Source: a phage
Sequence record: NC_102531.1
DNA: 64,000 bases
Direction: 5' to 3' (one strand)
In this document: in pieces, positions 1-36,539 of the stretch
How the letters are laid out: each line of letters starts with the position of its first letter
Position numbering within the stretch: position 1 is the stretch's first letter
The notes under the pieces: generated by a model
Databases searched by the model: none
What the model was told of the DNA's origin: nothing
Seen by the model: only the letters and a program-made list of their open reading frames with translations
Program-made: the position numbers and the translations under genes

Positions 1-100
1 AACAATCGTGGAATCCCCATTCAAAAGGTATGGTGGCCTCTTCGTCAAACACTTTCCACAATCTTTCTTGCCAATCCACTAAACGAGGGTGTGTGCTCAT
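1..100 (-). CDS. hypothetical protein, N-terminal part only (gene continues beyond window start)
   Basis: Minus-strand ATG at 98-100 preceded by GGAGG, overlapping the stop of the 100..666 gene (TAATG); reading frame open to window edge. Confidence 0.3.
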   Translation of the reverse strand, partial: MSTHPRLVDWQERLWKVFDEEATIPFEWGFHDC

Positions 101-666
101 TAAACCTCCCAAATGATCGGGCGGCTCGCCACCTGATCCACATATTTAAAAAATCTGTCGTTATCGTTTCTTGAACTGTGGCTTTCCTCCGTGTATCGAT
201 AAGGAAAACCTCTTAACCAGCTGTTGAAGATAGAAGAGATGGATATGGACAAAGCGCTATTCTCCCCTGTCTGAATAGCCATATCTGTTATAAGGCCGTC
301 AAACAAGCCATTAGTTGTAACAGGCAGACCATTCTCCATAGCGGTAATGTACAGTGTGGCACGACAACCAGAATACTCTGTCTTCAGCAGATCACCCACA
401 TACTTAGGATCAAACCCGTTCAATGTTGCTACCACAGATCCGAAGTTGGTGGCATCTTTCTCAGACACAGCAGTCAATGTTGCTGATCCACCTATCCCTA
501 TAAAATGTTGCCCCTCAATTACCACAACACCAGTGCCTGAGCACACCCTGACAGTTCCTGTCGGTAGCTCCAGCTTTGCAGCAATTAAGATCTCAACACC
601 ATCAAGCTCCAGCTTTTCAAGAAATAAATTATCTAATGGCGCTCTGATCATCTTAGAAATCCTCAA
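100..666 (-). CDS. hypothetical protein in tail-fibre region
   Basis: 188 aa ORF in tightly packed minus-strand operon downstream of the long fibre gene; no motif recognised. Confidence 0.35.
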   Translation of the reverse strand: MRISKMIRAPLDNLFLEKLELDGVEILIAAKLELPTGTVRVCSGTGVVVIEGQHFIGIGGSATLTAVSEKDATNFGSVVATLNGFDPKYVGDLLKTEYSGCRATLYITAMENGLPVTTNGLFDGLITDMAIQTGENSALSISISSIFNSWLRGFPYRYTEESHSSRNDNDRFFKYVDQVASRPIIWEV

Positions 667-678
667 AGAAGTTGATAA

Positions 679-1242
679 CTATATTATCACCTTTTTGCAT
701 AGCATCGACTTTTTGCTTAATTTTATAAATATCTCTGATATGAAACCTACCCTTTGGGGATTGGTTATTATCTTCATAGTATCCCCTGCGGCAATAGGTT
801 TTCTAAGTCTTGGAGATATGCTTATAACAGCAGACCCAACACCATCGCTGCGCACTGGAGCTGTTACCACTTTCAATTCATCATTGACAGATATTTTATC
901 TCCAGCTCTGGCTATGTCTCTGTTCGGCTCCCACCCGACCGTCTTCAAAAAATCGTCGTTACCAGTAGGCCCAAGGGCGATTGGCTCATTAGCTGTTACC
1001 GAGTGACCATAAGTTTTAATAAGAAAGATGTTTCCATCTTTATACACCTGATCAACAAAGCTCTTAAGCTCTAGCAACTGTGACTCGCTGATATTGGAGA
1101 CCGTCAAAGTGCCTTTCCAGTTAGGTGTGGCATAGGTTACTTTTTGCGTTTTACCTGTAAACGGACTTTTAAACGTAACAATATCTGCCAGCAGCTCCAA
1201 TCTAATATCTGGAAGGTATCTAGGCCTTTCCCATAAAAACAT
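679..1242 (-). CDS. hypothetical protein in tail-fibre region
   Basis: 187 aa ORF, same operon; no motif recognised. Confidence 0.35.
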   Translation of the reverse strand: MFLWERPRYLPDIRLELLADIVTFKSPFTGKTQKVTYATPNWKGTLTVSNISESQLLELKSFVDQVYKDGNIFLIKTYGHSVTANEPIALGPTGNDDFLKTVGWEPNRDIARAGDKISVNDELKVVTAPVRSDGVGSAVISISPRLRKPIAAGDTMKIITNPQRVGFISEIFIKLSKKSMLCKKVII

Positions 1243-1304
1243 TGTGCCTCCAGGTTAAACAATCATGATAGCTATTTTACCAGATTTTGAGTTAATACGC
1301 AATA

Positions 1305-1334
1305 CAAACAAAAAGCCCCCGCCGAAGCGAGGGC
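1305..1334 (-). terminator. rho-independent terminator (minus strand)
   Basis: GC-rich hairpin (minus strand GCCCTCGC-TTCG-GCGGGGGC) followed by TTTTTGTTTG, immediately after stop of 1341..1673 gene. Confidence 0.55.
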
Positions 1335-1340
1335 AATACT

Positions 1341-1673
1341 TTAAAGTGCTTCCAAGGTAGATACTGATTGGTCGAACATGTTCAACCTTATCGGATCTAC
1401 AACTTTTCCGCTTTTCGAGACGATGTTTTCTGCATTCTCGTCCAAGGCCAGAACGTTGACATAAAACAATTTACTTTTCTCGCAAACTGGATAGACAACC
1501 ATGTTGCCAAACTCATCCTCGGCCTCATAAGTGTCTTCAGTTTCTGTGTAAATGAACCCGACAACCTCTACAAGAAGGGTGTTTTGCAACACCTCATTCT
1601 CGTAAAAGCCAATTTCGTCCATGAAACCGTTAAAATCCTCCCTGTCAGTAAACCCAAGGGTAAAAGTATTCAT
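1341..1673 (-). CDS. hypothetical protein
   Basis: 110 aa ORF; start codon overlaps stop of the 1481 aa fibre gene. Confidence 0.35.
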   Translation of the reverse strand: MNTFTLGFTDREDFNGFMDEIGFYENEVLQNTLLVEVVGFIYTETEDTYEAEDEFGNMVVYPVCEKSKLFYVNVLALDENAENIVSKSGKVVDPIRLNMFDQSVSTLEAL

Positions 1674-4600
1674 TATTCAACACTCTCCATCATAAGCTGG
1701 GTATCTGTCAGTGCAGAGTTCCAAACTCTTATGTCCTTAATATGACCAAATAAGTGTCTTTCACCTGTCGCCGTTTGCCCACCAATGCGGATGAAAGCGC
1801 CTCCTGCTAGGAATTCCCAAGAAGACTGCGTTTCCGTGCTCACCAGTCCGTTAGCAAAAGAGCAGGTTTTACCGTCACCTTTTATCCTGAACCCGATTTT
1901 CAATTTACGGGCTTTAGCCATTTCGTAAACACGTCTGTTTGACCCTCCAATATCACAGTATGGATAGCCATCATCCGCAATATTTGTTGCAGAGCCAAAC
2001 CCCATGATAAATGCAGCACCAGATTGATGACCCTCTGTATCGATAACCCTAGGAGCTGCGTTAGGAGCTTTACCCCAACCTCTCCAGTTGGCATCCACCG
2101 TAGCAGCGATAGTGAATGGTCTAGGCGCTAAGTTATCCGTCATTGGGAATTTACAAAGATCTGCCGCCCTGGTTACAGATGAAGACCCTGTAGGGATAAA
2201 CGAGGACTCACAGGACCCTAACTCAAATTGAGGTATTGCAACATCAACCCAATCTCCTACGGCATGTTGAGCACCTTCTGGTGGAGCAATTTGGAACTGG
2301 CACCCGATCTTATTGTCAGAGGCCACTGCTTCAAACGTAGCAGCAATCCTTATCCAAGCAGGACCTGCTGTTTGCCATCTCTCAGCTTTTACTTTAATTC
2401 TCCCAGCTGCATCCCCTGTTGTTTTAACTTCAAGTGTTGACAGGTTAACATAAGCGTCACCTTGGAACACCGTGGTGGATCCATTGTACATGTCGAATCT
2501 TACACGCAGTCTCTGGTGGGCTTTACCACCTCTTGCAATAATAGACCCAGTACAGAATTTCTCAGCACCTGTCACATCGGCACCCCTAGTGGCTGGAACA
2601 GTGGCAAGGTTTAACGCTGTTGTTTCTACACCGGATGTGGTGTTTACTGTAAATCTTGCGCCTTTTGTGCCGTTAGTATTTGTTACAGTGCTACCGACAG
2701 TAATCGCTTGCTGTGCACCCCACTTGCTTGGGTCCTCACTGTTGAGCATGAGGTTTGTCCTTTGCCCCTCGATAAGCAACCCATCTCTTTCAAAACGTGG
2801 TTGGTTTGCTTGTGCAACAGCCATAACACCCCGCTTAGTGAAATAGGTTGCTGTGGAAGGTCTGGAGAAGACCATCTCACCTTCACCCAATGCAGGTTTT
2901 AGGTTAGAGGTTAAAGGCAACCACAAGTCAGGCATAACTGGAGCAGTTGTGTTTTCTGGGAAGCTTGTTCTCTTCCAAGGACTCCAAGCCATTCCGCTGC
3001 CAAGGTTATTGTAATACCTTTCCCATGTTCCACCAAGATACATTTTATATATCTGGATACAACCTGTTCCTTCATTAGCGGAGTTTCTAAGAACGATCAG
3101 CGTACCAGCCATCTGCTGTCCTGGTGGGTAATTTCTTTCCGCTGTGGCGTTGGCATTTGCCTCTTGATGGTAAATCCCTTCACGATCTGCCTTGTAGTCG
3201 TTAAGGTCATTAGTTCCCAACCCTTGACCACGGTGCTGAATAACTTTGTTCCACGCTCTGTGGTCTCCCTGCTCTATGGAACGAGTATACAGCTGGTCTA
3301 AACGACCTGCCATCTGGAAAGCGTAGTTTCCAGAAAATGCCACAGACAACCCGCCAACAACCATTGAACCTTCAGGTCCGTTGACGTTGCCAGCCAGTAT
3401 TTTGGATGGGTTGTTAGGCCCAAACTGGTTGTTCCAGTCTGCACCAGTATGACATACAAAACCACCCGGTGCTGAGAAAGTGCCATCTTTGTTGAAGTTG
3501 TAGAATCTATGAGCTGTGCCTACAACATCGCGAACGATAACTTGACCAGCTTCCGGAGTAGATCTGAACTCTGCCTGGCCTTGCAGTCTTGCACCATTAC
3601 CACATTTAGAGGTAAAGGTGTTGTTGATCAGATCCTCTGTTCCTTCCGATGCAGCTTGGAACCCTGCGTTAGAGAACAGTGCTTTTCTAGTGGTCTGACT
3701 ACCAGGACAAATGTAGTCAATACCGTCTGCCCAAAGCTCGACTTTGGGCATGTTCATTTTGCTCATCACTGCATAGCGTTCAGGAGTCCCCAGGTAGTGC
3801 CACATAGTTCCACCACCAGTGTAGAAACCTGATGTTCCTTTGAACTCAACCAGAGGTCTGGTGTTTGTTACATCATCACCTTTGATTGCAAGACTCAAAT
3901 CTGCAGATTCCAGAGGAGCACAGAACTTGACACCATCTTGGTTACCTGTCACGTTGCCTACCTGCCAATCAGCCTCCCTGGTTGACACTTCTATTACAGT
4001 AGCGCCAGCATATACTGTAACAGGGAATGCACGTGCCTCTACATAGAATGCAACATACTCCTGCTTACCTCTGGTTGGAGATACACATCCGAGGATTGCT
4101 TGCTCGTTTTGGTAGAAATTAATAACCCCTTGGAAAGAATCACCTCTGTCTGTCCAGCCACCAGTTCTGTAGTGACACTGTAGTGTAGCACAGTTCATTG
4201 GGTCGCCGCCAGAAGAAGATCTGGTGACAATGGTTAAATCTGTCCCGATAGTTGCTGCAAAGTTGGGGTCAGTTCTGACGATAATAGGATAATACTTACC
4301 GTCCTGCATAGCTGCAGTTCTAGGCAGGTTTACATATGGTCTAGCACCTGCTGCCAGAGGGATTCTGAATTGTGCTTGAGCATCCCCTACAGTCCTGGCA
4401 CTGGTACCACCACAAGCTATCGGTAGTGGTTCCCATTTGGCTTTCCGGTTGTTATAAACACCCCACTCAAGCGTTCCTTCACCTTGCTCGTCCATACCGC
4501 CATCCCAGATGACCATCTTGGCGGCTTTCTTGGACCCCCAGAAACCTCTTTCTGCCCCTGAACTACGGATCCACTCTCCAAGTCCCCAGTTTGTCAGCTG

Positions 4601-6118
4601 ACCAGTAAGATCCCCAACTTGCATATATTTAGGGCAGTCTAATACACCGTCTTCGCGGAAACCTAAATATCTATGAGTTTCAGATCCTTTTGCACCTTTG
4701 TGGAGGTGGATTGTCAACCAAGCCTTATTGTCGTTTCTTACCTCAGAGTAGATCCTATATCCATGCTCAAGGACACCGTCAGCGCTGTATTTGTCCCCGT
4801 TAACAATACCGGATGCTGACTTAACATCAGCAGAACTTTGAGACAGGTAAAGGTGCCCGAAGGTAGGAGAATTTCTAGACCCGAGACCGATGTGCGATCT
4901 AAAGGTATCATCGTTACGAGGTCTAACCATCGGCTGCCATGCAGTCCACTGATTTGTGTTGGCCTGATAGGTTCTCAAATACCAAACATCTACGTTAGAG
5001 AATGGGTAGTATTCCTGACGACAACCTGTACCGCCGTTAGCATTGTTCTGCCAAACAATCAAGTGACCAGCACCAGAACCTGCAGGGTAACCATTTGCCT
5101 CAGTTGCATAAGCAGTCATCGGCTGGTAGTATACACCATCCTGATTACCAGTCAAGTTATTGATATTGAAATTTGGCTCAAGGGCTGCACGTTGCTTATA
5201 GAAAGCACCGATATTGATACGGACTCCAGCGGCATCTCTAGCCCCTGTGCCGCCTTGCTCTATAGCAAGAGGTTGCCACGAAGCTGTTTGTTGGTTCCAC
5301 ATACCCCAACGGCCTGTTGCATCAAGCTGCAAGTACCCTGCCGTATTTAAATCATCTCCAGCACGGATAACTGTTCTTGTTGGGTTGTTTGCCTCTAGGC
5401 GTTTAAATTCATCACGAAGTGCTATTCTTTTCGTTGTTGCTACACCGTTGGTTACTGCAATGGTGTACATGGCTCCGGTGGTAGCGCCACGGAAAATACC
5501 ATCAACAGTTGTAGTATCACGGCGAGATACCACACCGTTCAGAAATTTTTCACCAGCTGCTACAGAAGGGTAGTTGGTGGTTCTTCCCTCTTCAATAACT
5601 GCAGGGCCAACAAAGTTATCAAGGTGAATAACATCGCCTACGGTGTGCACTGTACCAAAATCTACACGCTGTGCAAGTGCTTTAGCATCGTTAGCTGTCT
5701 GAACAGTAACATCCATTACATCCTGGACAGACTGCCCTTCGGCTGTCATGATCATAGATGCGCCAATGGTAGATTCCAGCTCCTCCCTTAGGGACGGGTC
5801 AGTATATACCATCCATGCAGCGTCAGTAATCCCACCATCAGCGTACGGTGAAGACAGTGCAGGAACAGTGTGCGGAAATTCGCCTTTCCAACGCAGGTAG
5901 AGGTCTTCCTCTTCGAAGTAGGCAAAATCCATTGGGCCGTTTAACTTACCACCTTCCTTAAAGGAGATTACATGAGAAACAGTCCCATCCACATGGACAA
6001 CATCGCCAATTTTTACACGACGGGTCAGGTCTGGTTGCTGAACAACCAGGTAATCATCCTCTGTCACTGCGGTAGTGGCAGGAAGAGATTCAATTCTGAC
6101 AACTTTAATATCAGCCAT
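1673..6118 (-). CDS. long tail fibre / receptor-binding protein with C-terminal LamG (concanavalin-like lectin) type domain
   Basis: 1481 aa; N-terminal ~45 aa motif shared with the 8754..9422 protein (LVVQQPDLTRRVKIGDVV vs LVVNQTDGTRKAKIDDVV); C-terminus ends ...IKDIRVWNSALTDTQL, typical of LamG domains; Gly/Thr/Asn-rich middle. Confidence 0.55.
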   Translation of the reverse strand: MADIKVVRIESLPATTAVTEDDYLVVQQPDLTRRVKIGDVVHVDGTVSHVISFKEGGKLNGPMDFAYFEEEDLYLRWKGEFPHTVPALSSPYADGGITDAAWMVYTDPSLREELESTIGASMIMTAEGQSVQDVMDVTVQTANDAKALAQRVDFGTVHTVGDVIHLDNFVGPAVIEEGRTTNYPSVAAGEKFLNGVVSRRDTTTVDGIFRGATTGAMYTIAVTNGVATTKRIALRDEFKRLEANNPTRTVIRAGDDLNTAGYLQLDATGRWGMWNQQTASWQPLAIEQGGTGARDAAGVRINIGAFYKQRAALEPNFNINNLTGNQDGVYYQPMTAYATEANGYPAGSGAGHLIVWQNNANGGTGCRQEYYPFSNVDVWYLRTYQANTNQWTAWQPMVRPRNDDTFRSHIGLGSRNSPTFGHLYLSQSSADVKSASGIVNGDKYSADGVLEHGYRIYSEVRNDNKAWLTIHLHKGAKGSETHRYLGFREDGVLDCPKYMQVGDLTGQLTNWGLGEWIRSSGAERGFWGSKKAAKMVIWDGGMDEQGEGTLEWGVYNNRKAKWEPLPIACGGTSARTVGDAQAQFRIPLAAGARPYVNLPRTAAMQDGKYYPIIVRTDPNFAATIGTDLTIVTRSSSGGDPMNCATLQCHYRTGGWTDRGDSFQGVINFYQNEQAILGCVSPTRGKQEYVAFYVEARAFPVTVYAGATVIEVSTREADWQVGNVTGNQDGVKFCAPLESADLSLAIKGDDVTNTRPLVEFKGTSGFYTGGGTMWHYLGTPERYAVMSKMNMPKVELWADGIDYICPGSQTTRKALFSNAGFQAASEGTEDLINNTFTSKCGNGARLQGQAEFRSTPEAGQVIVRDVVGTAHRFYNFNKDGTFSAPGGFVCHTGADWNNQFGPNNPSKILAGNVNGPEGSMVVGGLSVAFSGNYAFQMAGRLDQLYTRSIEQGDHRAWNKVIQHRGQGLGTNDLNDYKADREGIYHQEANANATAERNYPPGQQMAGTLIVLRNSANEGTGCIQIYKMYLGGTWERYYNNLGSGMAWSPWKRTSFPENTTAPVMPDLWLPLTSNLKPALGEGEMVFSRPSTATYFTKRGVMAVAQANQPRFERDGLLIEGQRTNLMLNSEDPSKWGAQQAITVGSTVTNTNGTKGARFTVNTTSGVETTALNLATVPATRGADVTGAEKFCTGSIIARGGKAHQRLRVRFDMYNGSTTVFQGDAYVNLSTLEVKTTGDAAGRIKVKAERWQTAGPAWIRIAATFEAVASDNKIGCQFQIAPPEGAQHAVGDWVDVAIPQFELGSCESSFIPTGSSSVTRAADLCKFPMTDNLAPRPFTIAATVDANWRGWGKAPNAAPRVIDTEGHQSGAAFIMGFGSATNIADDGYPYCDIGGSNRRVYEMAKARKLKIGFRIKGDGKTCSFANGLVSTETQSSWEFLAGGAFIRIGGQTATGERHLFGHIKDIRVWNSALTDTQLMMESVE

Positions 6119-6154
6119 TCTTTCTCCTGAAAGGGGGCAAACAGCCCCCCTATG

Positions 6155-8752
6155 TTAAAGGTACAATCCACGGTATTGAGCATAAAGGCCCAGACCGCGA
6201 AGGATTTCGCCAGAGTGATAGCCAACCGGATCAGAAACTGCCCAGCAGCCGTTTAAAATATTATCCCCATTAATGAAGTGGTGCTTTTGCAGTAGCTTCA
6301 CACAGGCTTCTACAACAATATCTATTTGAGGTATTGTCTCTGAATACCCGCACAGACCTAGCCAGCAGCAACCTGCAAGCCATTCACCTACCACCCACAT
6401 CCTGTCCCCTCTGTCTTGATAAGAGTATCCCCCAGAGGTGTTAAAGTCTGTAGGCAGATTTCCTGAATGAGATGACTGGAATCTGTTGAGGAACCATGCC
6501 CATTTCTGGCAGAACAGGAATAGTCTTTCATCAACAGGTTCTTTATGTTTCTTGAGCTCATATATTGTGCGGCACGCAGCAACAAAAGATCTTGACTGTA
6601 GTTTAGAGTTATCTACCATCTCCCACCAACCAGTCAACCCTTCATTGCCTCTCTGCCATACATAACGCGAGGCAACTGGACCTTCTGTCTTAAATGTATT
6701 GTTATACCAGACTTGAGCGTCATACAGAAAGCCTATTGTATTTGACAATCTATGGCGATCTATGTTTTCTGCACCCATGCAGTAGACTGCTGGGTATTGC
6801 ATGCCAGGGTAGGGCCAATTTGGCCTTTCCTCCAAGAGATAGTTTTCCTTATCTATCACCTTTCCGGCAGGGAACACACCGGGTGTGTGCCTGTATGCAC
6901 CTTGCTTGTAGTTTCTGACATAGCAATCGCCAACCTTAGCGGTTGATTCTGTCTTGCTTGCCATCCATACGCTAAACCAGATTAGATAAGCATCCCTATC
7001 TGCAATATAAAATTGCGGCAGTGTGTTGACGCAATACAGATCAAACAAGCCATTACCTATCTGCCTGTCGCTTAGGCTGAAATCTACAGAGGTGAGCCCC
7101 TTAGGATTAGCAAAGAAAGGTTTAATCTCTTCTTCGGCGTGATGAGGCTGTGTCGGATCTAGTTTGAAATCTCCTAGAGTAAGAGTTTCTGTTATCCATT
7201 GTCCATTAGTGGCATATAGATCAGCATACCATAACCACCTGTCTTTGTCAAGAAATTTGACCCTTACCATCTCATCATCTGATCGATAAGTTACTGAGTT
7301 TAAAGAAATCTCTCTTCCAAAATTGAAAGTTACTTTACCTCTTGCTATATTACAACGGGTGAAGTTGTCAGAGTGGTTGTAAATGTCGGTATCATACTGC
7401 ATACTAACACTAGCACCACCGCTTACGGCAATGTTTTCCTCTTTAGGTAAGAGATACGGATTACCGTCTTTACCAACTACCTCTACGAAATCAGTAACCT
7501 TGGCAACTATTTCTGTTACCTCTGCACCTCCAAAAGGGACACCTATCCTGTACTGTTTTTTGTTATTGTTGCCATCATTAAGGATGAAATGCGGCTGGAA
7601 CAGAACACCTTCTCCTCCGAAATTCATAACAATTTCAGCATCTCTGCCTATTTTGTATGTAGTCCCTTTTTGAATTATTTCGCAAGGCTGGCGTGCGTTC
7701 ATTCTAAAATTGATATACCCGTCACTGTCCCTGCTCATGACAGGAACTGTTCCTGCAACAAGACAAGTACCATCTGTGAACGGTGCCTTAATCAACGTGG
7801 TCTTTCTAAACAGTTTGTCGTAGGCGTTTATATCACTGAAATTAAGCAACTTGTTGTAAGACTGTTCAAACGCGGTGTAATACTTTTCCTCACCTGTCAA
7901 GGTGTAGAGTTGATAACAAGCGTCACACCACATCTCTTCCCCGTCCAACTCCGGGGCTTGATTATCTGCAATCACGTTTATAGGATTTACAATTACAGGG
8001 GATCCTGCAGGTATCACCGATCCACCCTGCTCTTGAGGTAATCTTACACAATAGGTCACCTTGTGGCTGCCTGTAACACCCTTATCTTGTAATTGGATTG
8101 TGCCGAACTCTACAGACGTATGACCACTGTCGGCTATGCTACCGTTAGCCCAATAGCGGTTACCATCCCATGCTATGTACCACTCAACCCACCAACTTAA
8201 TCCGGATGTTGTCCAATCTGGGTTAGCATCTGTGCCACCGTAAACATCAGAGTCTACAGTGTTTCTTCCTAACACACCGTTATACGCTTGGAATGCCTTG
8301 TCCAGATATTCCCCCCATGTCGGAGATCCGGCTGGGATTTTTCCTCTACCGTTGGTAAAAGACACCACCACATCTTTAAACCCACCGTGTGATGGAACCC
8401 CATCTGTGGATAGAGGGTAGTGGGACAATCTTTGCATTTTACTTTCTACGGCATATGCACCCAGAAGATGACTATTGTAAGCTTCCCAAGCATCTTTTGC
8501 CCTATCCAGATAGAAATCGCTTTTCGATGCCCTATATGCTTCAATGTATCCCAGAATCAACACAGCTTGGGACTCATGCATTGCCCAATCATTATTTATC
8601 TTATTACCTGCCCACCCTGCAGCTATAAGACCATCAGGGTTTACTAGCTTATTTTGTGTAGGGGTGTTGGTAATACCTGTGTTGTTATCGAGGCACTTCC
8701 TGTGCCCCTCAATCATCTGAAATACGTTATCAATGTTGTGTTGAATACGCAT
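6155..8752 (-). CDS. tail fibre/tailspike-associated protein, possible glycan-degrading domain
   Basis: 865 aa ORF between two fibre genes, Trp/Tyr/Asp-rich composition; function inferred from context only. Confidence 0.35.
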   Translation of the reverse strand: MRIQHNIDNVFQMIEGHRKCLDNNTGITNTPTQNKLVNPDGLIAAGWAGNKINNDWAMHESQAVLILGYIEAYRASKSDFYLDRAKDAWEAYNSHLLGAYAVESKMQRLSHYPLSTDGVPSHGGFKDVVVSFTNGRGKIPAGSPTWGEYLDKAFQAYNGVLGRNTVDSDVYGGTDANPDWTTSGLSWWVEWYIAWDGNRYWANGSIADSGHTSVEFGTIQLQDKGVTGSHKVTYCVRLPQEQGGSVIPAGSPVIVNPINVIADNQAPELDGEEMWCDACYQLYTLTGEEKYYTAFEQSYNKLLNFSDINAYDKLFRKTTLIKAPFTDGTCLVAGTVPVMSRDSDGYINFRMNARQPCEIIQKGTTYKIGRDAEIVMNFGGEGVLFQPHFILNDGNNNKKQYRIGVPFGGAEVTEIVAKVTDFVEVVGKDGNPYLLPKEENIAVSGGASVSMQYDTDIYNHSDNFTRCNIARGKVTFNFGREISLNSVTYRSDDEMVRVKFLDKDRWLWYADLYATNGQWITETLTLGDFKLDPTQPHHAEEEIKPFFANPKGLTSVDFSLSDRQIGNGLFDLYCVNTLPQFYIADRDAYLIWFSVWMASKTESTAKVGDCYVRNYKQGAYRHTPGVFPAGKVIDKENYLLEERPNWPYPGMQYPAVYCMGAENIDRHRLSNTIGFLYDAQVWYNNTFKTEGPVASRYVWQRGNEGLTGWWEMVDNSKLQSRSFVAACRTIYELKKHKEPVDERLFLFCQKWAWFLNRFQSSHSGNLPTDFNTSGGYSYQDRGDRMWVVGEWLAGCCWLGLCGYSETIPQIDIVVEACVKLLQKHHFINGDNILNGCWAVSDPVGYHSGEILRGLGLYAQYRGLYL

Positions 8753-8753
8753 C

Positions 8754-9422
8754 TTAGATAGCTCCTGCGATAATCAGTGCCCCGTACCAAGTTAACCCGT
8801 TGTCGTAGGTTTCCAACTTGAAAATGTCTGTTGCACCAGCTGTAAATGTTAGGATAGGATCTCTTCCGTAGGACCATTTAACATTACCAGGCCAATAGAC
8901 TTTGTTGCCGCCAGAGGTCTGAGTAATGCATACGGTTATAGTTCTCGCCACCCCTTCAAGACCTTCTGTTTGATTTTCAAAAGAGATTGTGGTATTTGAA
9001 GTTAGTCGAACCTTAAAGGTATCCGCAACTTCAAGATCCATATCAAGCTGACCACCGATAGATCCGTAATCAACTATTCTGCCAGAAGAAGTTGCAGCAA
9101 GCTCACCAAAAACAGACCAGGCATTTGCAGACACACCCCCAGCACCCTCTACAGTGGAGTCTGGGAGGATTATTTTAGGATAATCCCCGTTCCACGTGTA
9201 GTAGCGCTTAGTTTCTGGATCATAAGCAAAGTCCTTCTTGCTCTTAAGATAACCACCCTCTGTGAAATAGACTATTTTAGTAATGCTGAGATCGTTGACA
9301 ACATCATCAATCTTAGCCTTTCTTGTCCCATCAGTCTGGTTGACAACCAAGAAGTCATCACTCAGGACTGTTTCTGCATCTTCAAGATCTGGAATTGGTA
9401 TTGTAGGATAAGCTACAGCCAT
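8754..9422 (-). CDS. tail fibre protein / fibre adaptor (shares N-terminal attachment motif with the 1481 aa fibre)
   Basis: 222 aa; N-terminal homology to 1673..6118 product. Confidence 0.45.
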   Translation of the reverse strand: MAVAYPTIPIPDLEDAETVLSDDFLVVNQTDGTRKAKIDDVVNDLSITKIVYFTEGGYLKSKKDFAYDPETKRYYTWNGDYPKIILPDSTVEGAGGVSANAWSVFGELAATSSGRIVDYGSIGGQLDMDLEVADTFKVRLTSNTTISFENQTEGLEGVARTITVCITQTSGGNKVYWPGNVKWSYGRDPILTFTAGATDIFKLETYDNGLTWYGALIIAGAI

Positions 9423-9431
9423 GATTTCTCC

Positions 9432-10148
9432 TTAGTTAACATCAATAGCACGACCAGACTGGTTGGCAATAGCCTCATCATTGGAGGTAGCAATAACACC
9501 AGAGTATTCGCGCTCATCTGGAGCAAGCGTCCAGGTATTGCGGTTAATGGTTTGTTCTGCCTCAGTCATCAGCAGATCTTTATCCTGAGTCAACAGAGAG
9601 CCTACAGGGATCGGGTTTTCCATCTCAGGACCAGCATACTGGTTCCACCATGTGGCATCTCCGGTTCTAGGCAATCTGAAGTTGATCAGGTAGTACAGTT
9701 TATTAGCCCACTTAATCCAACCTTCATCATCACAGAGAGAGGTTGTCCCAGAATCAGGCTGTGGGTAGGTAAACTGATCAAGACCTACAAAAGCCAGCCT
9801 TACAATCTCGTTCTCTTTGGTAACAACCTCAAAGAACGCTTGGTATGTTCTCGATCTTCGATCCATGGTAGACTGGAAGTTTACGATGTTTAGTACATCC
9901 GGCTCTTGTCTTGCCACTTCCATAATCTTGTTATCAAGAACAGTCTTCATGACCTTCTTACTGAGAAAGTCCATATAAGGGAAGCCAAACAACTCGTCAA
10001 AGTACCAGCTCCCCTTCCACGTATTAAACCTCATCCACAAGCGCTGGCGTAGACTTACCTGGTTTGAATCTATCAACTCAAGACCTTTGTCTATCGCCAA
10101 ATCGCCTGTCTGTGGGTCCATCAATATATCACTATAAAGCGTAGCCAT
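9432..10148 (-). CDS. baseplate/tail protein (hypothetical)
   Basis: 238 aa ORF in baseplate-position gene block. Confidence 0.3.
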   Translation of the reverse strand: MATLYSDILMDPQTGDLAIDKGLELIDSNQVSLRQRLWMRFNTWKGSWYFDELFGFPYMDFLSKKVMKTVLDNKIMEVARQEPDVLNIVNFQSTMDRRSRTYQAFFEVVTKENEIVRLAFVGLDQFTYPQPDSGTTSLCDDEGWIKWANKLYYLINFRLPRTGDATWWNQYAGPEMENPIPVGSLLTQDKDLLMTEAEQTINRNTWTLAPDEREYSGVIATSNDEAIANQSGRAIDVN

Positions 10149-10160
10149 GAAAGCCCTCTA

Positions 10161-10838
10161 TTAGTGCGGTCCACTTGTCTCGCCATCAGGGCAAGAGTGG
10201 GTATGACCTTTATATTCTGCATAGAATGAATCCAAATCCACACCAGCAGCAGTTATAATTCTACCAGATGGGTCTATTGTGGCACCATTCATTCTGATAT
10301 TTCCATCCACAGCAGCTCGCAAATTGGCAGCACCGTTAGTGAAAGAAAACTCCCCGCTGCTGTCGCACCGTAATGTCCCACCCGGTGTTTGAAGCTCAAA
10401 ATCTCCAGAAGGTGTCAGTTTAAAATAGACCTTATCATTCCATAACTCTACGTTATCAGGATCGATCTGTAAAGCGTTTGAGTCTGAATGAACAGAGGTT
10501 ATTGCCCACCCAGGAAACAGGCCGTGAGTTTGTTGATCGTCGTTATTGTTTTCATTTCTCTCTGAAAACTGCAATCCTACAACATCACCAGCTTTAATAG
10601 GAAGTGTTAACCTTGCCTTTCCACTGTTTGCAGACATCACCTGAATTGGAACGTCATAGATAAGAGGGTATCTCTCCACATCTCCGTCATCAAACGTGGT
10701 TTCAGCTATTGGCTGCACGGCTGCAGAAGGGATACTGTAGTCTACACTGACAACTCTGGCCCTGATACTGGTGTGGTAGTCCCTCATTATTTTTTCTATA
10801 AAGGATCTTACAGCAGCATCTTTCCTATTTATTGCCAT
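10161..10838 (-). CDS. baseplate spike-like protein (hypothetical)
   Basis: 225 aa; position between tape measure and fibres; C-terminal GHTHSCPDGETSGPH reminiscent of baseplate spike tips; weak. Confidence 0.3.
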   Translation of the reverse strand: MAINRKDAAVRSFIEKIMRDYHTSIRARVVSVDYSIPSAAVQPIAETTFDDGDVERYPLIYDVPIQVMSANSGKARLTLPIKAGDVVGLQFSERNENNNDDQQTHGLFPGWAITSVHSDSNALQIDPDNVELWNDKVYFKLTPSGDFELQTPGGTLRCDSSGEFSFTNGAANLRAAVDGNIRMNGATIDPSGRIITAAGVDLDSFYAEYKGHTHSCPDGETSGPH

Positions 10839-11842
10839 TATACCTCCTCAGTTTTGTCAACAACCCCACCGACTGTTTCCCCAAGGCCAAGCTCTGTGAT
10901 GTAATCACCTCCTTCTATGGTTCCTTTATGATGCACCGTGATCACCTTATAGAAGCCTGTATATTGCTTGCTTTTAAGATAAATAGTGGACTCTGGGAGG
11001 ATAGCTCCGTTAAGGCATGTGGTTACAGTAAGGCCAACATCCTCTCTCGGGTTTTTCTTTTTCTTTTTAGATGTCGAACCACCTTTGGCAGCAGCTTTAG
11101 CTTTTCGTTTTTTAGCAGGTTCTGGATTTTTAGGGGTAGGAGATCCGTGCATCCCAGACTCTGCACTTATTTCAAACACAGAGTCTTTGAACCTTTTTCC
11201 AACCTTGGTCCAATACAAAGCCCCATCCTGAACGCTAAATGTGGAGTTGGTCAGCCTTGCAAACCTGCGGAGGTTCTCTGCAGTGTTTCCAGAGAAAGCC
11301 ATAGAGTATTGCAAAGTCTGGTTTCCAAAACCAACAACCCTACCTTTTGGCAAGTTCATATCCTTCAGCAGGTCATTAAGCACAGAGTTCAGAGGTGTGC
11401 CTTTCTGATAAGATCTTGTGCTTTGGCACTTAATGATGTTCTCAGTGCCATCCCCGAAGATGAACTTAGTTTTTCTGGTCGGACCTTCCCATCTGTCTTC
11501 AACAAACTCCACAGTTCCGGAGAATATTAACTGGTTCTCATTATCATAGCCAGCTTCAAACATAACTGCAAGGGCATCAGCCTGATGCATATCCAAATAG
11601 TTAACTGTATCGTCAGACAGGTTGTAAACTGTCACATAACCTTTGTTTGGCTCTTTGGTATTGTCCTTTTGTATGTCAAACTCTATATTGGCAGCACCAG
11701 TGTCCGAGCTAACTTCATAAACTCCGGAATCACTCTCCCCTTTCTTTTCAACAGATTTTGGGATATTGGTTTTTGATTTACCGCCATGTTCTACAGGACG
11801 ACCAAACAATAATCGCCATGTTCTACGTCTGTACTCTGCCAT
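10838..11842 (-). CDS. baseplate/tail protein (hypothetical) with basic low-complexity tail
   Basis: 334 aa; KKRKAKAAAKGGSTSKKKKK stretch; gene order. Confidence 0.3.
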   Translation of the reverse strand: MAEYRRRTWRLLFGRPVEHGGKSKTNIPKSVEKKGESDSGVYEVSSDTGAANIEFDIQKDNTKEPNKGYVTVYNLSDDTVNYLDMHQADALAVMFEAGYDNENQLIFSGTVEFVEDRWEGPTRKTKFIFGDGTENIIKCQSTRSYQKGTPLNSVLNDLLKDMNLPKGRVVGFGNQTLQYSMAFSGNTAENLRRFARLTNSTFSVQDGALYWTKVGKRFKDSVFEISAESGMHGSPTPKNPEPAKKRKAKAAAKGGSTSKKKKKNPREDVGLTVTTCLNGAILPESTIYLKSKQYTGFYKVITVHHKGTIEGGDYITELGLGETVGGVVDKTEEV

Positions 11843-12222
11843 TATTCTAACCCTTGCTGTTCCTTGTAAAGATCAACCGGGGTGCCGTATACAAGTTGTA
11901 GCTCAGATCTCGCCCCAAGGTTATATCTTCCAACCCTGCCCCAATATTGATCGTCTTTAAACGACAGCGCCATCAGTCTACCTTTCGGTAAATCATCTCG
12001 GTAATGCAGTCCGTCTAAAATATCTTGACAAGCTGTTACTTTTCTGGTTACTAAAGGGCTGTCACCTACTGGACCAAGAGATAACCACCAGGACTCATCC
12101 CTCTCATTCCATTGCATACGCATTTCATACGTTTCATTGTCTAAAACAACACGCATGGTTTGATCAGGAAAGCCGTCAATGTCCCACACAAAGGTAATTA
12201 TGCACCAATCTTTAAGCTCCAT
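11842..12222 (-). CDS. hypothetical tail protein
   Basis: 126 aa ORF, start/stop overlap with neighbours. Confidence 0.3.
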   Translation of the reverse strand: MELKDWCIITFVWDIDGFPDQTMRVVLDNETYEMRMQWNERDESWWLSLGPVGDSPLVTRKVTACQDILDGLHYRDDLPKGRLMALSFKDDQYWGRVGRYNLGARSELQLVYGTPVDLYKEQQGLE

Positions 12223-33975: not shown

Positions 33976-34386
33976 TCATTTAAGTTTAATGCAGTTTTTA
34001 AGCTGGCGTTCCATACGATCCACAACCCTGTCTGGAACATCATGAATGCTTTTATTACCGTGGCGGTTTTCAACCACGATCACGGTATAACTATACCCAT
34101 TACTGATTGCCATGTCAATATATTCTTGCACATGTTTTTCTTTTGTAAACGTATTACTTACCACGATACGGTCGTATCCCATACGCATCATATCTTCTAC
34201 GTTATCTTTGCACCATTTTGCTGCAAGTGTTACTTTACTTGCATCCCAGTTGTAATTTCCGTCATCGTCGTACCAGAACATGTCGTTCTCAAAATGTGGA
34301 TACAGACCTTCTAAAGATAGCGCATTTGCCAGTGTTGATTTGCCAGACCCTGGTAGACCACGCACGATATATAGCATTTTAGACAT
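33976..34386 (-). CDS. P-loop polynucleotide kinase-like protein (candidate 5'-OH kinase)
   Basis: Walker A GLPGSGKST close to N-terminus, T4 Pnk kinase-domain-like; likely start MSKMLYIV preceded by GGAGG. Confidence 0.5.
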   Translation of the reverse strand: MSKMLYIVRGLPGSGKSTLANALSLEGLYPHFENDMFWYDDDGNYNWDASKVTLAAKWCKDNVEDMMRMGYDRIVVSNTFTKEKHVQEYIDMAISNGYSYTVIVVENRHGNKSIHDVPDRVVDRMERQLKNCIKLK

Positions 34387-34486
34387 AGTAATCCTCCGTT
34401 TTAATTTTAATGATAGTATACCTAACTGTTTTGTTAATTTCAAGTGTTGACACTAGGTTATTTGTGTGGCAGGATAGACTGACAAA

Positions 34487-35422
34487 ATGACAAATGAGGA
34501 ACGTATGATGAAGTATTTTAATGCAGACGACTTGGTTGACAAAGGTCTTGTAACCAGTAGATATTACCCAGATCTTGGGTTAAAGATCTATAAATATGCC
34601 AGAAAAGTATTTTACAACAATTTATGGCATTTGTCCCCTCGTTTACTAGAGTGCCGAGGCATTGTTGTCGGTAATGAAGGAAATGTTGTGGCATGGCCCT
34701 TCACAAAAGTGTTTAACTTGGGAGAAAACTCCACCAACCTGCCTGACAATAAGCTTGTGACGGCGGTAGAGAAAAAGAACGGATTCCTTGGTGTGGTATC
34801 ATCTCATAAAGGTGAACTATTGTTCTCAACAACCGGATCTATTGATTCTCCATATTGTAACCTCGCAAAGGAAACCATCCAGGAGCAATGTGGTAATTTA
34901 GATCTTATCAAGAAGGTTATGGGTAATGAAAACATGACATTCATGTTTGAAATTTGTCACCCTTCAGATCCGCATATTGTTCAGGAAGATCATGGCGCAT
35001 ATTTGATAGGTTGCAGATATAATGATTCTGGAATAATGCTACCAGAGGCAGCTTTAGATGGGATTGCCAAATACCTTGGTGCAAAACGTCCTCACACTGT
35101 GCGTGAAATTCCGTTCAGCTATGCAAAAGAATTAGCTGCAGAAACAAGAGGCGAAGGGTATATGATCCGTAAGCCTTACTACCCTTATGACCTGCAGCTG
35201 AAGATCAAGTCTCCATACTATCTGGCACGGAAGGCCGTAATGAGGTGTAAAGCTTGGAAGATTTGGGATGATGATATCTTTAAACGTGTTGACGAAGAGT
35301 TTTACGGCATGGTAAACTTCATTCGTAGCAATTACACAGAAGATGTGTGGAACTGTCTCCTGGAGCAGGAACGCCGCGAGATACTTGACTGCTATTTCCA
35401 CAACGAGGACTATATGCAATGA
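34487..35422 (+). CDS. RNA ligase, T4 Rnl1 (RnlA)-like
   Basis: Recognisable similarity to T4 Rnl1 N-terminal region (LECRGIVV, KVFNLGEN, adenylation motif EKKNGFLG, STTGSIDS). Confidence 0.6.
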   Translation: MTNEERMMKYFNADDLVDKGLVTSRYYPDLGLKIYKYARKVFYNNLWHLSPRLLECRGIVVGNEGNVVAWPFTKVFNLGENSTNLPDNKLVTAVEKKNGFLGVVSSHKGELLFSTTGSIDSPYCNLAKETIQEQCGNLDLIKKVMGNENMTFMFEICHPSDPHIVQEDHGAYLIGCRYNDSGIMLPEAALDGIAKYLGAKRPHTVREIPFSYAKELAAETRGEGYMIRKPYYPYDLQLKIKSPYYLARKAVMRCKAWKIWDDDIFKRVDEEFYGMVNFIRSNYTEDVWNCLLEQERREILDCYFHNEDYMQ

Positions 35423-35769
35423 AGAAGTTGATTGTGTGGCTGGATGACTTGAGAGATCCGTCAAATTATGGGCTCCCAGACGCTATTTGGCTAAAGAATT
35501 CCTCCGAGTTTATGGATTTTATTGACGATAATAGAAAGCTCTACAGACGCGTTTCTGAGTGGCATATGGACAACGACCTTGGAGAGGTATTCGAAGGGTA
35601 CGATTGCCTATCTATGTTGGAGGAAAAATTTGTATTTGGTAAGCCTCCTGTAGTTGACAACGTGAAGATTTTCGTGCATACTTCTAACCCATCAGCTGCT
35701 CGTAAATTCATGCTTGCAGCTGACTCGTTTAAAAAGTTCGGAATAGAGATTAAACAAAACATCTACTGA
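35419..35769 (+). CDS. hypothetical protein (partner of Sir2 gene)
   Basis: 116 aa ORF overlapping the Rnl stop and ending 9 nt before the Sir2 start. Confidence 0.35.
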   Translation: MKKLIVWLDDLRDPSNYGLPDAIWLKNSSEFMDFIDDNRKLYRRVSEWHMDNDLGEVFEGYDCLSMLEEKFVFGKPPVVDNVKIFVHTSNPSAARKFMLAADSFKKFGIEIKQNIY

Positions 35770-35777
35770 GGACACTT

Positions 35778-36539
35778 ATGCGACGACTGATCATTATCTC
35801 CGGTGCTGGTTTGAGCGCTGAATCTGGTATCCCCACTTTCCGGTCTGGTGGCACTGCAATGTGGGAGAATTTCAGCATCAATGAGGTGTGTAACATCCAC
35901 ACCTTCGCCAAGAACTACTATAAGGTGCATGACTTTTACAATGCACGACGTGTAGCTCTGGGCAGTGTTGATCCTAACCTTGCACATCTCCGGATCGCTG
36001 AGTGGTATTCCCGCTGGTCTGGTCGTGTGATCAACATTACCACCAATGTGGATGATTTGCTGGAGCGTGCTGGTGTAAAACATGAAGATATTTTACATGT
36101 CCACGGGTATTTGCCAGAAATAGTCTATGAGGACGATGAAGGAAGTAACGTTATTAAGGACATTGGATACTCTGAGGTAGATGCAGGAAAGTATACCTGG
36201 GTTAAGCCTAATGTAGTGTTCTTCGGAGAAGTAGCTCCGAAGTATACAGACATGTACGACCTGTTGACTTCCCTTACGAGTAATGATATGGTTATCCTTG
36301 TAGGGTGTTCCAACACAGTTATCAATTTTAACTGGGAGCTATTCCCTGCCTGCAATAAGGGAACCAAACTACTGATCGTTAACAAATACGACTCACAGCA
36401 TCTAGAGGAGAATGGCATTTCACGTAGTGATATTTACCAATATGAGGATCGCGGCATCCCAGTTTGGTTTAACGGGGCGGTTGATGCTTTCTCTGATAAA
36501 ACATTCATTGAGATCGTAGAAAACTTTATGGAACTTTAA
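35778..36539 (+). CDS. Sir2 (sirtuin) family NAD-dependent deacylase/NADase-like protein
   Basis: N-terminal GAGLSAESGIPTFRS (NAD-binding), TNVDDLL and HVHG motifs; no CxxC zinc module seen. Confidence 0.65.
   Translation: MRRLIIISGAGLSAESGIPTFRSGGTAMWENFSINEVCNIHTFAKNYYKVHDFYNARRVALGSVDPNLAHLRIAEWYSRWSGRVINITTNVDDLLERAGVKHEDILHVHGYLPEIVYEDDEGSNVIKDIGYSEVDAGKYTWVKPNVVFFGEVAPKYTDMYDLLTSLTSNDMVILVGCSNTVINFNWELFPACNKGTKLLIVNKYDSQHLEENGISRSDIYQYEDRGIPVWFNGAVDAFSDKTFIEIVENFMEL

Follow-up and report, generated by a model that had tools for sequence, protein, structure and literature searches.

What receptor-recognition equipment do three neighbouring fibre genes of an E. coli myophage encode, and how is it attached to the virion? 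These genes lie in a 64,000-nt stretch of phage DNA (NC_102531.1; hereafter the window), and an earlier note, based on the letters alone, had assigned them to two fibre proteins (1481 and 222 residues) with a common N-terminal attachment motif and different distal domains, and to an 865-residue protein that could be the partner of the smaller one. The three open reading frames were found as described (1673..6118, 6155..8752 and 8754..9422), all on the minus strand, which carries every gene of the fibre block.

Layout of the fibre locus and the shared anchor

The whole window showed ~96% DNA identity to phage JeffSchatz, which identifies its source as a Vequintavirus (rV5-like) myophage; over 12 kb the match reached 100% coverage and 95.9% identity, with the same gene order. 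The genes are orthologous to, and fully syntenic with, those of annotated Vequintavirus genomes: behind the sheath initiator, rV5 (gp41, gp42 and gp43) and the BASEL Vequintavirinae locus (JeffSchatz bas55_0024-0027) have an identical gene order. In this rV5-like E. coli myophage the region forms the proximal portion of the lateral-tail-fibre locus, a side-fibre locus that is already known and annotated and is ordinary in kind. Within the baseplate operon, its 222-residue gene directly follows that of the sheath initiator. In rV5, gp41, gp42 and gp43 were found in virions by mass spectrometry (PMC3606486). The features of the locus are as follows.

8754..9422, minus strand: 222-residue protein, the proposed adaptor, orthologue of rV5 gp43, bas55_0024 and bas54_0025; N-terminal peptide of ~45 residues, PF18668 domain (residues 51-105) and C-terminal partner domain (residues ~110-222)
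9108..9422, minus strand: anchor module of the 222-residue protein (residues 1-105), common to the 1481-residue fibre
8757..9095, minus strand: C-terminal domain of the 222-residue protein (residues 110-222), co-occurring with the 865-residue family
6155..8752, minus strand: 865-residue protein with a predicted (α/α)6 barrel, orthologue of rV5 gp42, bas55_0025 and phi92 gp141
1673..6118, minus strand: 1481-residue long lateral tail fibre, orthologue of bas55_0026 (phrog_6578)
5804..6118, minus strand: anchor module of the long fibre (residues 1-105), N-terminal peptide plus PF18668 domain
2969..5803, minus strand: shaft of the long fibre (residues 106-1050), ending at the recombination junction
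1676..2968, minus strand: exchangeable distal tip (residues 1051-1481), GTA_spike_fiber domain followed by a concanavalin/LamG-like β-sandwich
1341..1673, minus strand: 110-residue gene, overlapping the fibre stop codon (TAATG; phrog_1361)
1315..1334, minus strand: terminator-like hairpin with an 8-bp stem (seven GC pairs), followed by TTTTTGTTTG

The stop codon of the 222-residue gene and the start codon of the 865-residue gene are indeed 1 nt apart (TAA G ATG), with AGGAG upstream, and the terminator-like hairpin closes the unit 3' of the 110-residue gene. A promoter scan returned 12 matches compared with 14.2 expected from the shuffled background; as none rose above that background, no internal promoter is claimed.

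Comparison of the 1481- and 222-residue proteins by BLASTP revealed 38% identity over 99 N-terminal residues (E=2e-18). The similarity postulated in the earlier note is significant in a proper alignment, while its extent, given there as ~45 residues, is really ~100. Both proteins contain a PF18668 Tail_spike_N domain (i.e. the TSP1/Gp66 N-terminal domain), with scores of 38.5 bits in the fibre (residues 46-103) and 41 bits in the 222-residue protein (residues 51-105), each exceeding the Pfam gathering threshold of 25 bits, and a shared attachment module is thereby supported by alignment and domain assignment alike. When each N-terminus was compared with the whole 64-kb window by tblastn, the sole match was the other copy (E ~5e-18); no third copy was detected there, the next matches having E>0.1, and none of the remaining JeffSchatz fibre proteins matched PF18668. 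The anchor of the long fibre further matched the N-terminal regions of tailspikes in the PDB (Sf11 gp13 and G7C gp63.1, 4qnl). The N-terminal peptide, here ~40 residues, recurs at the start of nepoznato gp027 and gp030, of phiEa21-4 gp70 and gp71, and of phi92 gp140 and its endosialidase gp143; unlike the 222-residue protein, phi92 gp140 (157 residues) is without the PF18668 domain. The anchor consists of two separable sub-modules, the N-terminal peptide and the PF18668 domain.

The 222-residue protein and its 865-residue partner

The earlier note regarded the 222-residue protein (phrog_7760) as a second fibre with a distal domain of its own, a description that is replaced here by that of a short adaptor, the Bas54 orthologue of which is essential. 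According to published transposon data, this orthologue (bas54_0025) carried insertions at 7 of 47 TA sites, whereas bas54_0026, the orthologue of the 865-residue protein, carried them at 94 of 189, and the long-fibre orthologue also tolerated insertions. An essential adaptor with a dispensable proposed cargo must have a function beyond carrying an enzyme; equally, the non-essential 865-residue orthologue is not a load-bearing part of the baseplate.

Every 865-residue homologue inspected had, immediately upstream, a small gene in which the C-terminal ~110 residues of the adaptor recur, with E values of 1e-15 to 1e-28 for the small upstream genes of four other lineages. In all five other lineages inspected, the small gene retained the C-domain and carried a different N-terminus. 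The C-domain was present in 525 phage records and the 865-residue family in 524, with adaptor and partner counts of 239 and 242 for Escherichia and 60 and 62 for Vibrio, and equal counts for the other genera; wherever both were listed, their coordinates were adjacent. This two-gene module corresponds to VOG5264 and VOG1347, and to phrog_7760/9017 and phrog_2871. In Rosemountvirus and in Crifsvirus A24 the pair adjoins head and neck genes, not baseplate genes. Such near one-to-one co-occurrence, including these head and neck contexts, would be difficult to account for if the two proteins did not function as a unit. Based on these sequence comparisons, we propose that the C-domain of the adaptor recruits the 865-residue protein, to which it would physically bind. 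A profile of the C-domain yielded no meaningful match among solved structures.

A Rosetta-stone fusion of adaptor and enzyme was also considered and was rejected, as none with the parts in the expected order was found. When 5.8 billion proteins were searched with a C-domain profile, all 42 homologous clusters consisted of small proteins (84-208 residues); neither these clusters nor the large-protein representatives contained a fusion of the C-domain with the 865-residue protein. Neither a C-domain HMM searched against 150 representatives of the 865-residue family (best match P0037, E=0.24) nor a comparison of the C-domain with the N-terminal extensions of longer family members gave anything significant in that order; the only joint protein, P0063, has its parts in an unexpected order.

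Structure prediction suggested that the 865-residue protein adopts an (α/α)6 toroid of the glycoside-hydrolase type, bearing two β-rich insertions (residues ~100-260 and ~330-615); the model is moderately confident (pLDDT 71, pTM 0.56) and was built from a seven-sequence alignment. An anchor module is absent from this protein. Its description as aromatic-rich applies only mildly, phenylalanine, tryptophan and tyrosine together accounting for 12.9% of residues compared with 9.7% and 11.3% in the other two proteins. Across 119 representatives of the family with pairwise identities below 50%, the candidate catalytic residues E60, D270 and E849 are conserved in 89-95%, and Q62, Q680 and R721 in 89-98%; several of the conserved acidic or polar residues are located at predicted helix starts. 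Searches of the full protein and of its halves against Pfam and NCBIfam produced no family match, even at E≤10, a comparison with the sequences of solved structures gave no meaningful match, and a BFVD fold search yielded nothing but phage tail proteins with a generic name or none. Judged by the predicted model, the protein is of a glycoside hydrolase or epimerase type with β-sandwich insertions, and its most likely role is to bind and to cleave or modify a conserved surface glycan, an activity and a ligand that we infer. Strict co-occurrence, adjacency across phage families and the glycosidase-type fold all favour the suggestion that it is the enzymatic partner of the 222-residue protein.

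Within Vequintavirus, amino-acid identity is 95% or higher for both the 222-residue protein (119 records) and the 865-residue protein (117 records), a genus-wide conservation that a structural role could explain equally well. A core baseplate protein, named in the earlier note as the outcome that would contradict a receptor-binding role, was nevertheless rejected, since the 865-residue family occurs in virion-gene contexts that differ between lineages and its Bas54 member tolerates insertions.

The long fibre, its tip alleles and the unit of exchange

T5-like phages have fibres that share ~31-34% identity with the shaft of the 1481-residue fibre, the matches covering residues 168-1048; this shaft contains two duplicated knob-like domains (residues ~318-370 and ~970-1022; internal repeat E=2e-11). 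Beyond the shaft, residues 1115-1319 matched the full GTA_spike_fiber profile (NF048003, positions 1-182) with 74.5 bits (E=1.5e-20), above the curated NCBIfam cut-off of 36 bits, and the tip likewise matched Rcc01080 in PDB 6tb9 (E=1.6e-8). The head-spike fibre of RcGTA, to which the latter belongs, binds capsular polysaccharide (PMC7296036, PMC10218006). The LamG-like end proposed in the earlier note is supported at the fold level, the tip being structurally similar to solved lectin-type jelly rolls of the concanavalin A-like/LamG fold; at the sequence level its support is sub-threshold, as the PF13385 Laminin_G_3 match (19.6 bits, E=0.001, residues ~1426-1474) falls below the cut-off of 27.6 and is limited to the last ~50 profile positions. 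The 1481-residue protein contained no match to PF13884 Peptidase_S74 in Pfam.

A different tip is found in most relatives. The long fibre is 88% identical to bas58_0027 up to residue 1050 and shows no identity thereafter, bas58_0027 ending in a PF13884 Peptidase_S74 domain (58.8 bits). In only 34 of ~120 Vequintavirus records does the match extend over at least 80% of the long fibre, the others stopping at residue ~1050, and ~70% of relatives have a Peptidase_S74 tip in place of the GTA/LamG-like one. Accordingly, rV5, Bas54 and Bas58 differ from the window in having a fibre of 1266-1272 residues with a Peptidase_S74 end and no 110-residue gene (rV5 gp41 thus representing the other tip allele), whereas JeffSchatz resembles the window in both its GTA-spike-fibre/LamG-like tip and its 110-residue gene. 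HeinrichReichert, like Bas54, carries the S74 allele and is without the small gene.

The description of the locus as a host-range cassette and recombination hotspot was found to be apt for fibre residues ~1051-1481 together with the 110-residue gene, and not for the 222/865 pair, which is the most conserved part of the fibre locus. Only the tip (residues 1051-1481) and the 110-residue gene are exchanged by recombination.

The downstream 110-residue gene, which the earlier note left out, is part of this exchange unit. In the T1-like phage tunus and the T5-like phage SPLA5b, the same tip is immediately followed by a gene for a 92-residue homologue (E 1e-10 to 1e-11). The 110-residue gene travels with the GTA/LamG-like tip and may serve in assembly or as an accessory factor.

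Candidate recognition devices and their counterparts in other phages

Taken together, these data make it probable that the locus encodes two receptor-recognition devices on one type of anchor, i.e. an adaptor with an 865-residue enzyme, and a long fibre with an exchangeable tip. In the former, the N-terminal peptide of ~45 residues and the PF18668 domain would hold the adaptor on the baseplate periphery, its C-terminal β-domain of ~110 residues would recruit the anchorless 865-residue protein, and the latter, with its predicted (α/α)6 fold, would bind, cleave or modify a conserved surface glycan. The other device would be the 1481-residue fibre, attached by an anchor of this same type, with two knob domains in a shaft resembling T5 fibres and, at its end, a tip of two β-sandwiches (one of the GTA head-spike-fibre type, one concanavalin/LamG-like), which probably binds polysaccharide. 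This tip and the overlapping 110-residue gene are swapped by recombination as one unit, the alternative allele of rV5 and most relatives ending in a self-cleaving Peptidase_S74 chaperone.

A close parallel to the adaptor and its partner outside the rV5-like phages is phi92 (Justusliebigvirus), in which gp140 is 42% identical to the adaptor C-domain (E=1e-28) and gp141 is 35% identical to the 865-residue protein over its full length, both in the same position after the sheath initiator gp139; where the window has its long fibre with a lectin tip, phi92 has an endosialidase. A cryo-EM study of phi92 from 2026 left its fibre II unassigned and did not discuss gp141 (PMC13450770). CBA120 (TSP1-4) and G7C (gp63.1/gp66) resemble the window in carrying PF18668 on several receptor-binding proteins per virion and in the modular exchange of distal parts within their branched complexes. 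However, their proteins are β-helix tailspikes, each with its own enzyme domain, whereas in the window the enzyme is proposed to be a separate (α/α)6 polypeptide held by a small adaptor. By analogy, the adaptor would compare with that of the podophages K1E and K1-5, in which the glycan-degrading enzyme is encoded by a gene of its own and is presented by a small adaptor bound to the virion, an adaptor-endosialidase system mentioned in the phi92 paper (PMC13450770); the enzyme folds differ, a β-propeller/β-helix endosialidase in those phages compared with an (α/α)6 barrel here. As for the long fibre, residues 1115-1319 share a domain with RcGTA Rcc01080 (NF048003; 6tb9), yet the latter is a single chain located on capsid pentamers via an N-terminal Leu-Gly repeat, while in the window the domain is situated at a tail-fibre tip and is followed by a second β-sandwich. 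The C-terminal ~430 residues are 40-50% identical to side fibres of T1-like, T5-like, Queuovirinae and lambdoid phages (1296 homologues), and the small downstream gene is also common to T1-like and T5-like side-fibre loci; these fibres differ in having other N-terminal anchors (e.g. PF08400) and in belonging to siphovirus virions.

Several other readings were weighed against this arrangement. The 222-residue protein might mainly be an integral element of the baseplate periphery, such as a fibre base, its adjacency to the 865-residue gene reflecting co-assembly and not a one-to-one cargo relationship. The essentiality of the Bas54 adaptor orthologue next to two insertion-tolerant neighbours, the position of the gene after that of the sheath initiator, and the attachment of phi92 fibre II to the base of fibre I (PMC13450770) are all compatible with this, but we consider it quite unlikely given that the C-domain and the 865-residue family co-occur almost one-to-one in ~525 phages, that the pair stands next to head and neck genes in Rosemountvirus and Crifsvirus A24, and that it is the N-terminus of the small protein which varies by lineage while the C-domain stays. 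It is also rather improbable that the 865-residue protein is a non-catalytic scaffold or lectin, serving as a rigid arm (e.g. that of an L-shaped fibre) or as a glycan-binding surface: the conservation of E60, D270, E849, Q62, Q680 and R721 is of the kind that an active site or a ligand-binding site would show, and its non-essential Bas54 orthologue argues against a load-bearing part, even though no curated glycosidase family matches the protein, its conservation of at least 95% across Vequintavirus is unlike that of typical host-range depolymerases, and the arm of phi92 fibre I is unassigned (PMC13450770).

A real possibility, if somewhat short of an even chance, is that the shared N-terminus reflects docking of one protein on the other, or on distinct paralogous sites, so as to form a branched complex as in Ackermannviridae tailspikes or with G7C gp66/gp63.1, and not a single baseplate site for both, as the earlier note suggested. 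The proteins on which PF18668 was defined, CBA120 TSP1 and those of the G7C gp66 type, form such complexes, phi92 has one fibre on the base of another (PMC13450770), and siphophage Sf11 docks by an N-terminal helix ahead of a PF18668-like domain (PMC12724387); rV5-type baseplate structures, however, are below the resolution needed to tell these options apart (PMC12143355). Returning to the two-device arrangement, a tentative extension, which we hold to be possible rather than probable, is that the adaptor and the (α/α)6 protein represent a widespread two-component glycan-processing device, found in more than 500 phages of unrelated families and positioned according to the adaptor N-terminus. 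In rV5- and phi92-type phages it might account for phi92 'fibre II' or the fibre I arm density, with the adaptor also acting as an indispensable baseplate element. Phi92 gp140 with gp141 is a testable candidate for the unassigned fibre density.

Recognition of many hosts makes the rV5-like phages, which rank among the E. coli phages isolated most frequently, candidates for therapy. The engineering of host range can make use of a swappable piece that comprises residues 1051-1481 and the 110-residue gene, with its junction at residue ~1050 and the terminator as its boundary; the 222/865 pair is not such a piece. The locus thereby gains a concrete list of parts: an anchor of two sub-modules, an adaptor-enzyme pair and an exchange unit of tip plus small gene.

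Gene layout and baseplate context

Three ORFs were confirmed on the minus strand at the positions assigned to them in the earlier note, encoding a 222-aa protein (8754..9422; the adaptor), an 865-aa protein (6155..8752; the large protein) and a 1481-aa protein (1673..6118; the long fibre). A single base separates the 222-aa stop codon from the 865-aa start codon (TAA G ATG), and the 1481-aa gene is preceded by a 36-base spacer carrying a GC hairpin and an AGGAGA ribosome-binding site. This hairpin is followed by just three T residues, then AGGAGA and ATG, is below terminator-scan strength, and could represent an attenuator or mRNA-stability element dividing the pair from the long-fibre gene. 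The long-fibre stop codon overlaps the start of a 110-aa gene (TAATG), beyond which a terminator-like hairpin marks the downstream boundary of the exchangeable tip cassette.

Features of the locus (position, strand, description)
1315-1334, minus: strong hairpin of terminator type (stem of 8 bp with 7 GC pairs, TTTTTGTTTG tail), immediately 3' of the 110-aa gene
~3053-3211, minus: second knob-like copy of the long fibre (residues ~970-1022)
~5009-5167, minus: first knob-like copy of the long fibre (residues ~318-370)
6133-6150, minus: GC hairpin GGGGGC-TGTTT-GCCCCC, in the gap separating the 865-aa stop codon (6155-6157) from the start of the 1481-aa gene (6118)
10161-10838, minus: 225-aa protein, 5' of the sheath initiator, matching PF18352 (N-terminal domain of the phi92-type membrane-piercing central spike; 38 bits)
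11842-12222: 126-aa protein matching the Pam3 gp18 baseplate plug

Positions 1-12000 of the window matched 124 phage records by megablast, 112 of them at a coverage of at least 80% and 90-99% identity. The top match was Escherichia phage JeffSchatz (a Vequintavirus, rV5-like myophage; 95.9% across the whole 12 kb), in which the coding-strand order is tape measure, tube initiator, plug, hub, central spike and a 'baseplate protein' of the sheath-initiator type. PHROG and Pfam scans of the window ORFs were consistent with this annotation, and the three genes thus represent the start of the known rV5-like lateral-tail-fibre locus. The matches of the 225-aa and 126-aa proteins confirm the baseplate context. 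Elsewhere in the window, GC skew turns from negative to positive at ~34000-36000, in keeping with transcription reversing direction between the structural module and the remaining genome.

Between 18 and 25 records labelled 'Campylobacter phage' (MG0656xx: C2, C12, C14, C15, A12a and others) were 93-96% identical to this Escherichia coli rV5-like locus, and some records of the same deposit match fibres of the T5-like or T1-like kind. Host assignments in this deposit look unreliable and inflate apparent host breadth in counts based on organism names.

The rV5 locus was described in 2013, when gp41, gp42 and gp43 were reported to be present in virions and the gp43 N-terminus was compared to that of a tailspike (PMC3606486), and it is already annotated in BASEL phages. 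The observation in the earlier note thus holds, while its interpretation is borne out in part. The locus is an ordinary, previously annotated phage receptor-binding locus, to which the present analysis adds the sub-structure of the anchor, the cross-family pairing of adaptor and enzyme, fold assignments and the exact exchange unit.

Shared anchor and proposed adaptor-enzyme pairing

The N-terminal likeness of the 1481-aa and 222-aa proteins proved significant (38% identity, E=2e-18, BLASTP) and extends over 99 residues, about twice the ~45 aa originally proposed. Both proteins score above the Pfam gathering threshold for PF18668 (Tail_spike_N). A tblastn search of the window with either N-terminus returned only the other copy, and Pfam scans detected no PF18668 in the other fibre proteins of JeffSchatz. 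An N-terminal alignment together with BLASTP showed that the anchor consists of two separable pieces, i.e. the first ~40 residues, with the pattern …I.I.DLP..T.V…D.LVV.Q.D.T.K… (the block spotted in the earlier note), and a PF18668-type domain (residues ~50-105). The peptide also opens gp140 and the endosialidase gp143 of phi92, the phAPEC8-like equivalents of these two (nepoznato gp027 and gp030), and phiEa21-4 gp70 and gp71. The PF18668-type domain matches phi92 gp151, which is without the peptide, and the N-terminal regions of solved tailspikes (Sf11 gp13, G7C gp63.1 (4qnl) and CBA120 TSPs). Since the virion-bound part seen in siphophage Sf11 is a helix preceding this domain (PMC12724387), the extreme N-terminal peptide would, by analogy, be the likelier docking element of the window's anchor.

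Homologues of the 865-aa protein were identified by tblastn in 524 phage records from very different groups, including rV5-like, phi92/phAPEC8-like and jumbo phages (PBECO4, SPLA3), Rosemountvirus, Kolesnikvirus, Crifsvirus, and phages of Vibrio and Pseudomonas. Searching 1.84 billion representative proteins with a profile yielded 363 clusters at 50% identity. None of the aligned homologues carries an anchor domain. In all five other lineages whose neighbourhoods were inspected (brorfarstad, A24, phiEa21-4, nepoznato and phi92), a small gene (157-259 aa) lies directly 5' of the homologue, and the C-terminal ~80-115 residues of its product are homologous to residues ~110-222 of the 222-aa protein (the C-domain; E 5e-15 to 1e-28). 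The N-terminus of these small proteins varies: brorfarstad and A24 have a coiled-coil-like one, phi92-like phages have only the peptide, and the window has the peptide followed by PF18668. The C-domain alone was found in 525 phage records (tblastn), with a genus breakdown nearly that of the 865-aa family, and the coordinates of the two adjoin wherever both are listed (PBECO4, TacPo2, PHB05, VEcB and Vibrio phages).

Phage records by host genus (adaptor C-domain; 865-aa family)
Escherichia: 239; 242
Salmonella: 101; 101
Vibrio: 60; 62
Erwinia: 33; 33
Campylobacter-labelled: 23; 23
Cronobacter: 12; 12

The 222-aa protein is thus read as an adaptor paired with the 865-aa protein. Most simply, the two form an obligate two-component module, in which the N-terminus of the small protein would fit a given virion and the C-domain would hold the large protein; we infer that they bind physically. 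In Rosemountvirus and A24, the pair adjoins head and neck genes, not baseplate genes. In the related phage S144, gp16-gp18, which may include a homologue, were detected in virions (PMC7432712). No fusion of the C-domain to the large protein was found, apart from P0063, a 293-aa metagenomic representative in which the domain order is opposite to the gene order. In P0063, the match to the (α/α)6 family (its N-terminal ~190 positions) spans residues 12-195 and that to the C-domain spans residues 200-287 (E=2e-20); the protein may be an assembly chimera or a genuine rearranged fusion.

The 865-aa protein itself matched nothing in Pfam, NCBIfam or PDB sequences. An AlphaFold2 model based on a seven-sequence alignment (pLDDT 71, pTM 0.56) placed helices in pairs at 59-95, 269-306 and 663-860, with two β-rich insertions breaking up the series. 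Several of the best conserved polar residues among 119 family representatives (E60, Q62, D270, R341, D502, Q652, Q680, R721 and E849) sit at predicted helix starts, which we read as a putative conserved pocket. The predicted (α/α)6-barrel fold is in line with the BASEL annotation 'glycosidase domains', suggestive of a putative glycosidase.

Exchangeable tip and conserved pair

The long fibre comprises the anchor (residues 1-105), a shaft whose residues ~168-1048 resemble fibres of T5-like phages (31-34% identity) and a tip (residues 1051-1481). The shaft holds a duplicated knob-like domain (residues ~318-370 versus ~970-1022; E=2e-11, 44% identity over 54 aa). Its C-terminal copy ends exactly at the recombination junction at residue ~1050. 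Within the tip, residues 1115-1319 match NCBIfam GTA_spike_fiber (74.5 bits, cut-off 36) and, in PDB, the RcGTA head-spike fibre Rcc01080, which binds the Rhodobacter capsule (PMC7296036, PMC10218006). The LamG-like lectin end proposed earlier holds as regards fold and likely function, the model of residues 1076-1481 being all-β (pLDDT 74), but is not established as regards Pfam family membership, the Laminin_G_3 match of the last ~50 residues being sub-threshold.

Coverage of the long fibre is 80% or more in only 34 of ~120 Vequintavirus records; the remainder match residues 1-1050 at 86-92% and then stop. For example, HeinrichReichert bas58_0027 (1266 aa) is 88% identical over residues 1-1050, shows no identity beyond, and carries a C-terminal Peptidase_S74 chaperone domain; rV5 gp41 likewise ends in this domain, unlike the long fibre of the window. 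The S74 allele lacks the 110-aa gene. About 1300 side-fibre proteins from T1-like, T5-like, Queuovirinae and lambdoid phages have C-termini that share 40-50% identity with the tip found in the window. Both tunus (T1-like) and SPLA5b (T5-like) carry, after this same tip and with stop and start overlapping, a 92-aa gene that is a homologue of the 110-aa gene (E about 1e-10 to 1e-11). The breakpoint at ~1050, together with the 110-aa gene accompanying the tip, defines the exchange unit as residues ~1051-1481 plus the 110-aa gene, up to the terminator.

Identity of at least 95% was seen in 119 records for the 865-aa protein and in 117 for the adaptor C-domain. The proposal of a recombination hotspot in which only distal parts vary between relatives thus applies to the long fibre, where residues 1-1050 are kept and the tip is swapped along with the 110-aa gene, and not to the 222/865 pair, which is the conserved part of the locus.

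Candidate for unassigned virion density and probable fitness contribution

At low resolution, cryo-EM of Bas49 and Bas54 revealed no more than three proximal fibres (PMC12143355). In the 2026 phi92 structure, gp143 was assigned as fibre I and gp147 as fibre III; fibre II was left open with gp140 among the candidates, and gp141 was never mentioned (PMC13450770). As gp140 and gp141 are the counterparts of the 222/865 pair, they are a reasonable candidate for the unassigned phi92 density.

In the reference transposon library of Bas54 (MaxBurger; gene numbers offset by one, Extended Data Table 2), the 222-aa counterpart bas54_0025 was hit at 7 of 47 TA sites (Essential), the 865-aa counterpart bas54_0026 at 94 of 189 and the long fibre bas54_0027 (S74 allele) at 154 of 238 (both Intermediate); the authors concluded from the plate library that the latter two withstand disruptive insertions and are dispensable on K-12 (10.1101/2025.11.20.689424). 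Upon re-reading of the K-12 liquid competition counts (HIDEN-SEQ Data S3), insertions were left at ~29 of 189 sites in bas54_0026 and ~6 of 238 in bas54_0027, whereas counts were present at every site in the listed start of the neighbouring bas54_0028. This difference suggests, in our own reading and not as a claim of that paper, that both genes carry a sizeable fitness contribution even on K-12. The essentiality of the adaptor shows that its role goes beyond carrying the enzyme; baseplate assembly may depend on it, or it may serve as a base for other fibres.
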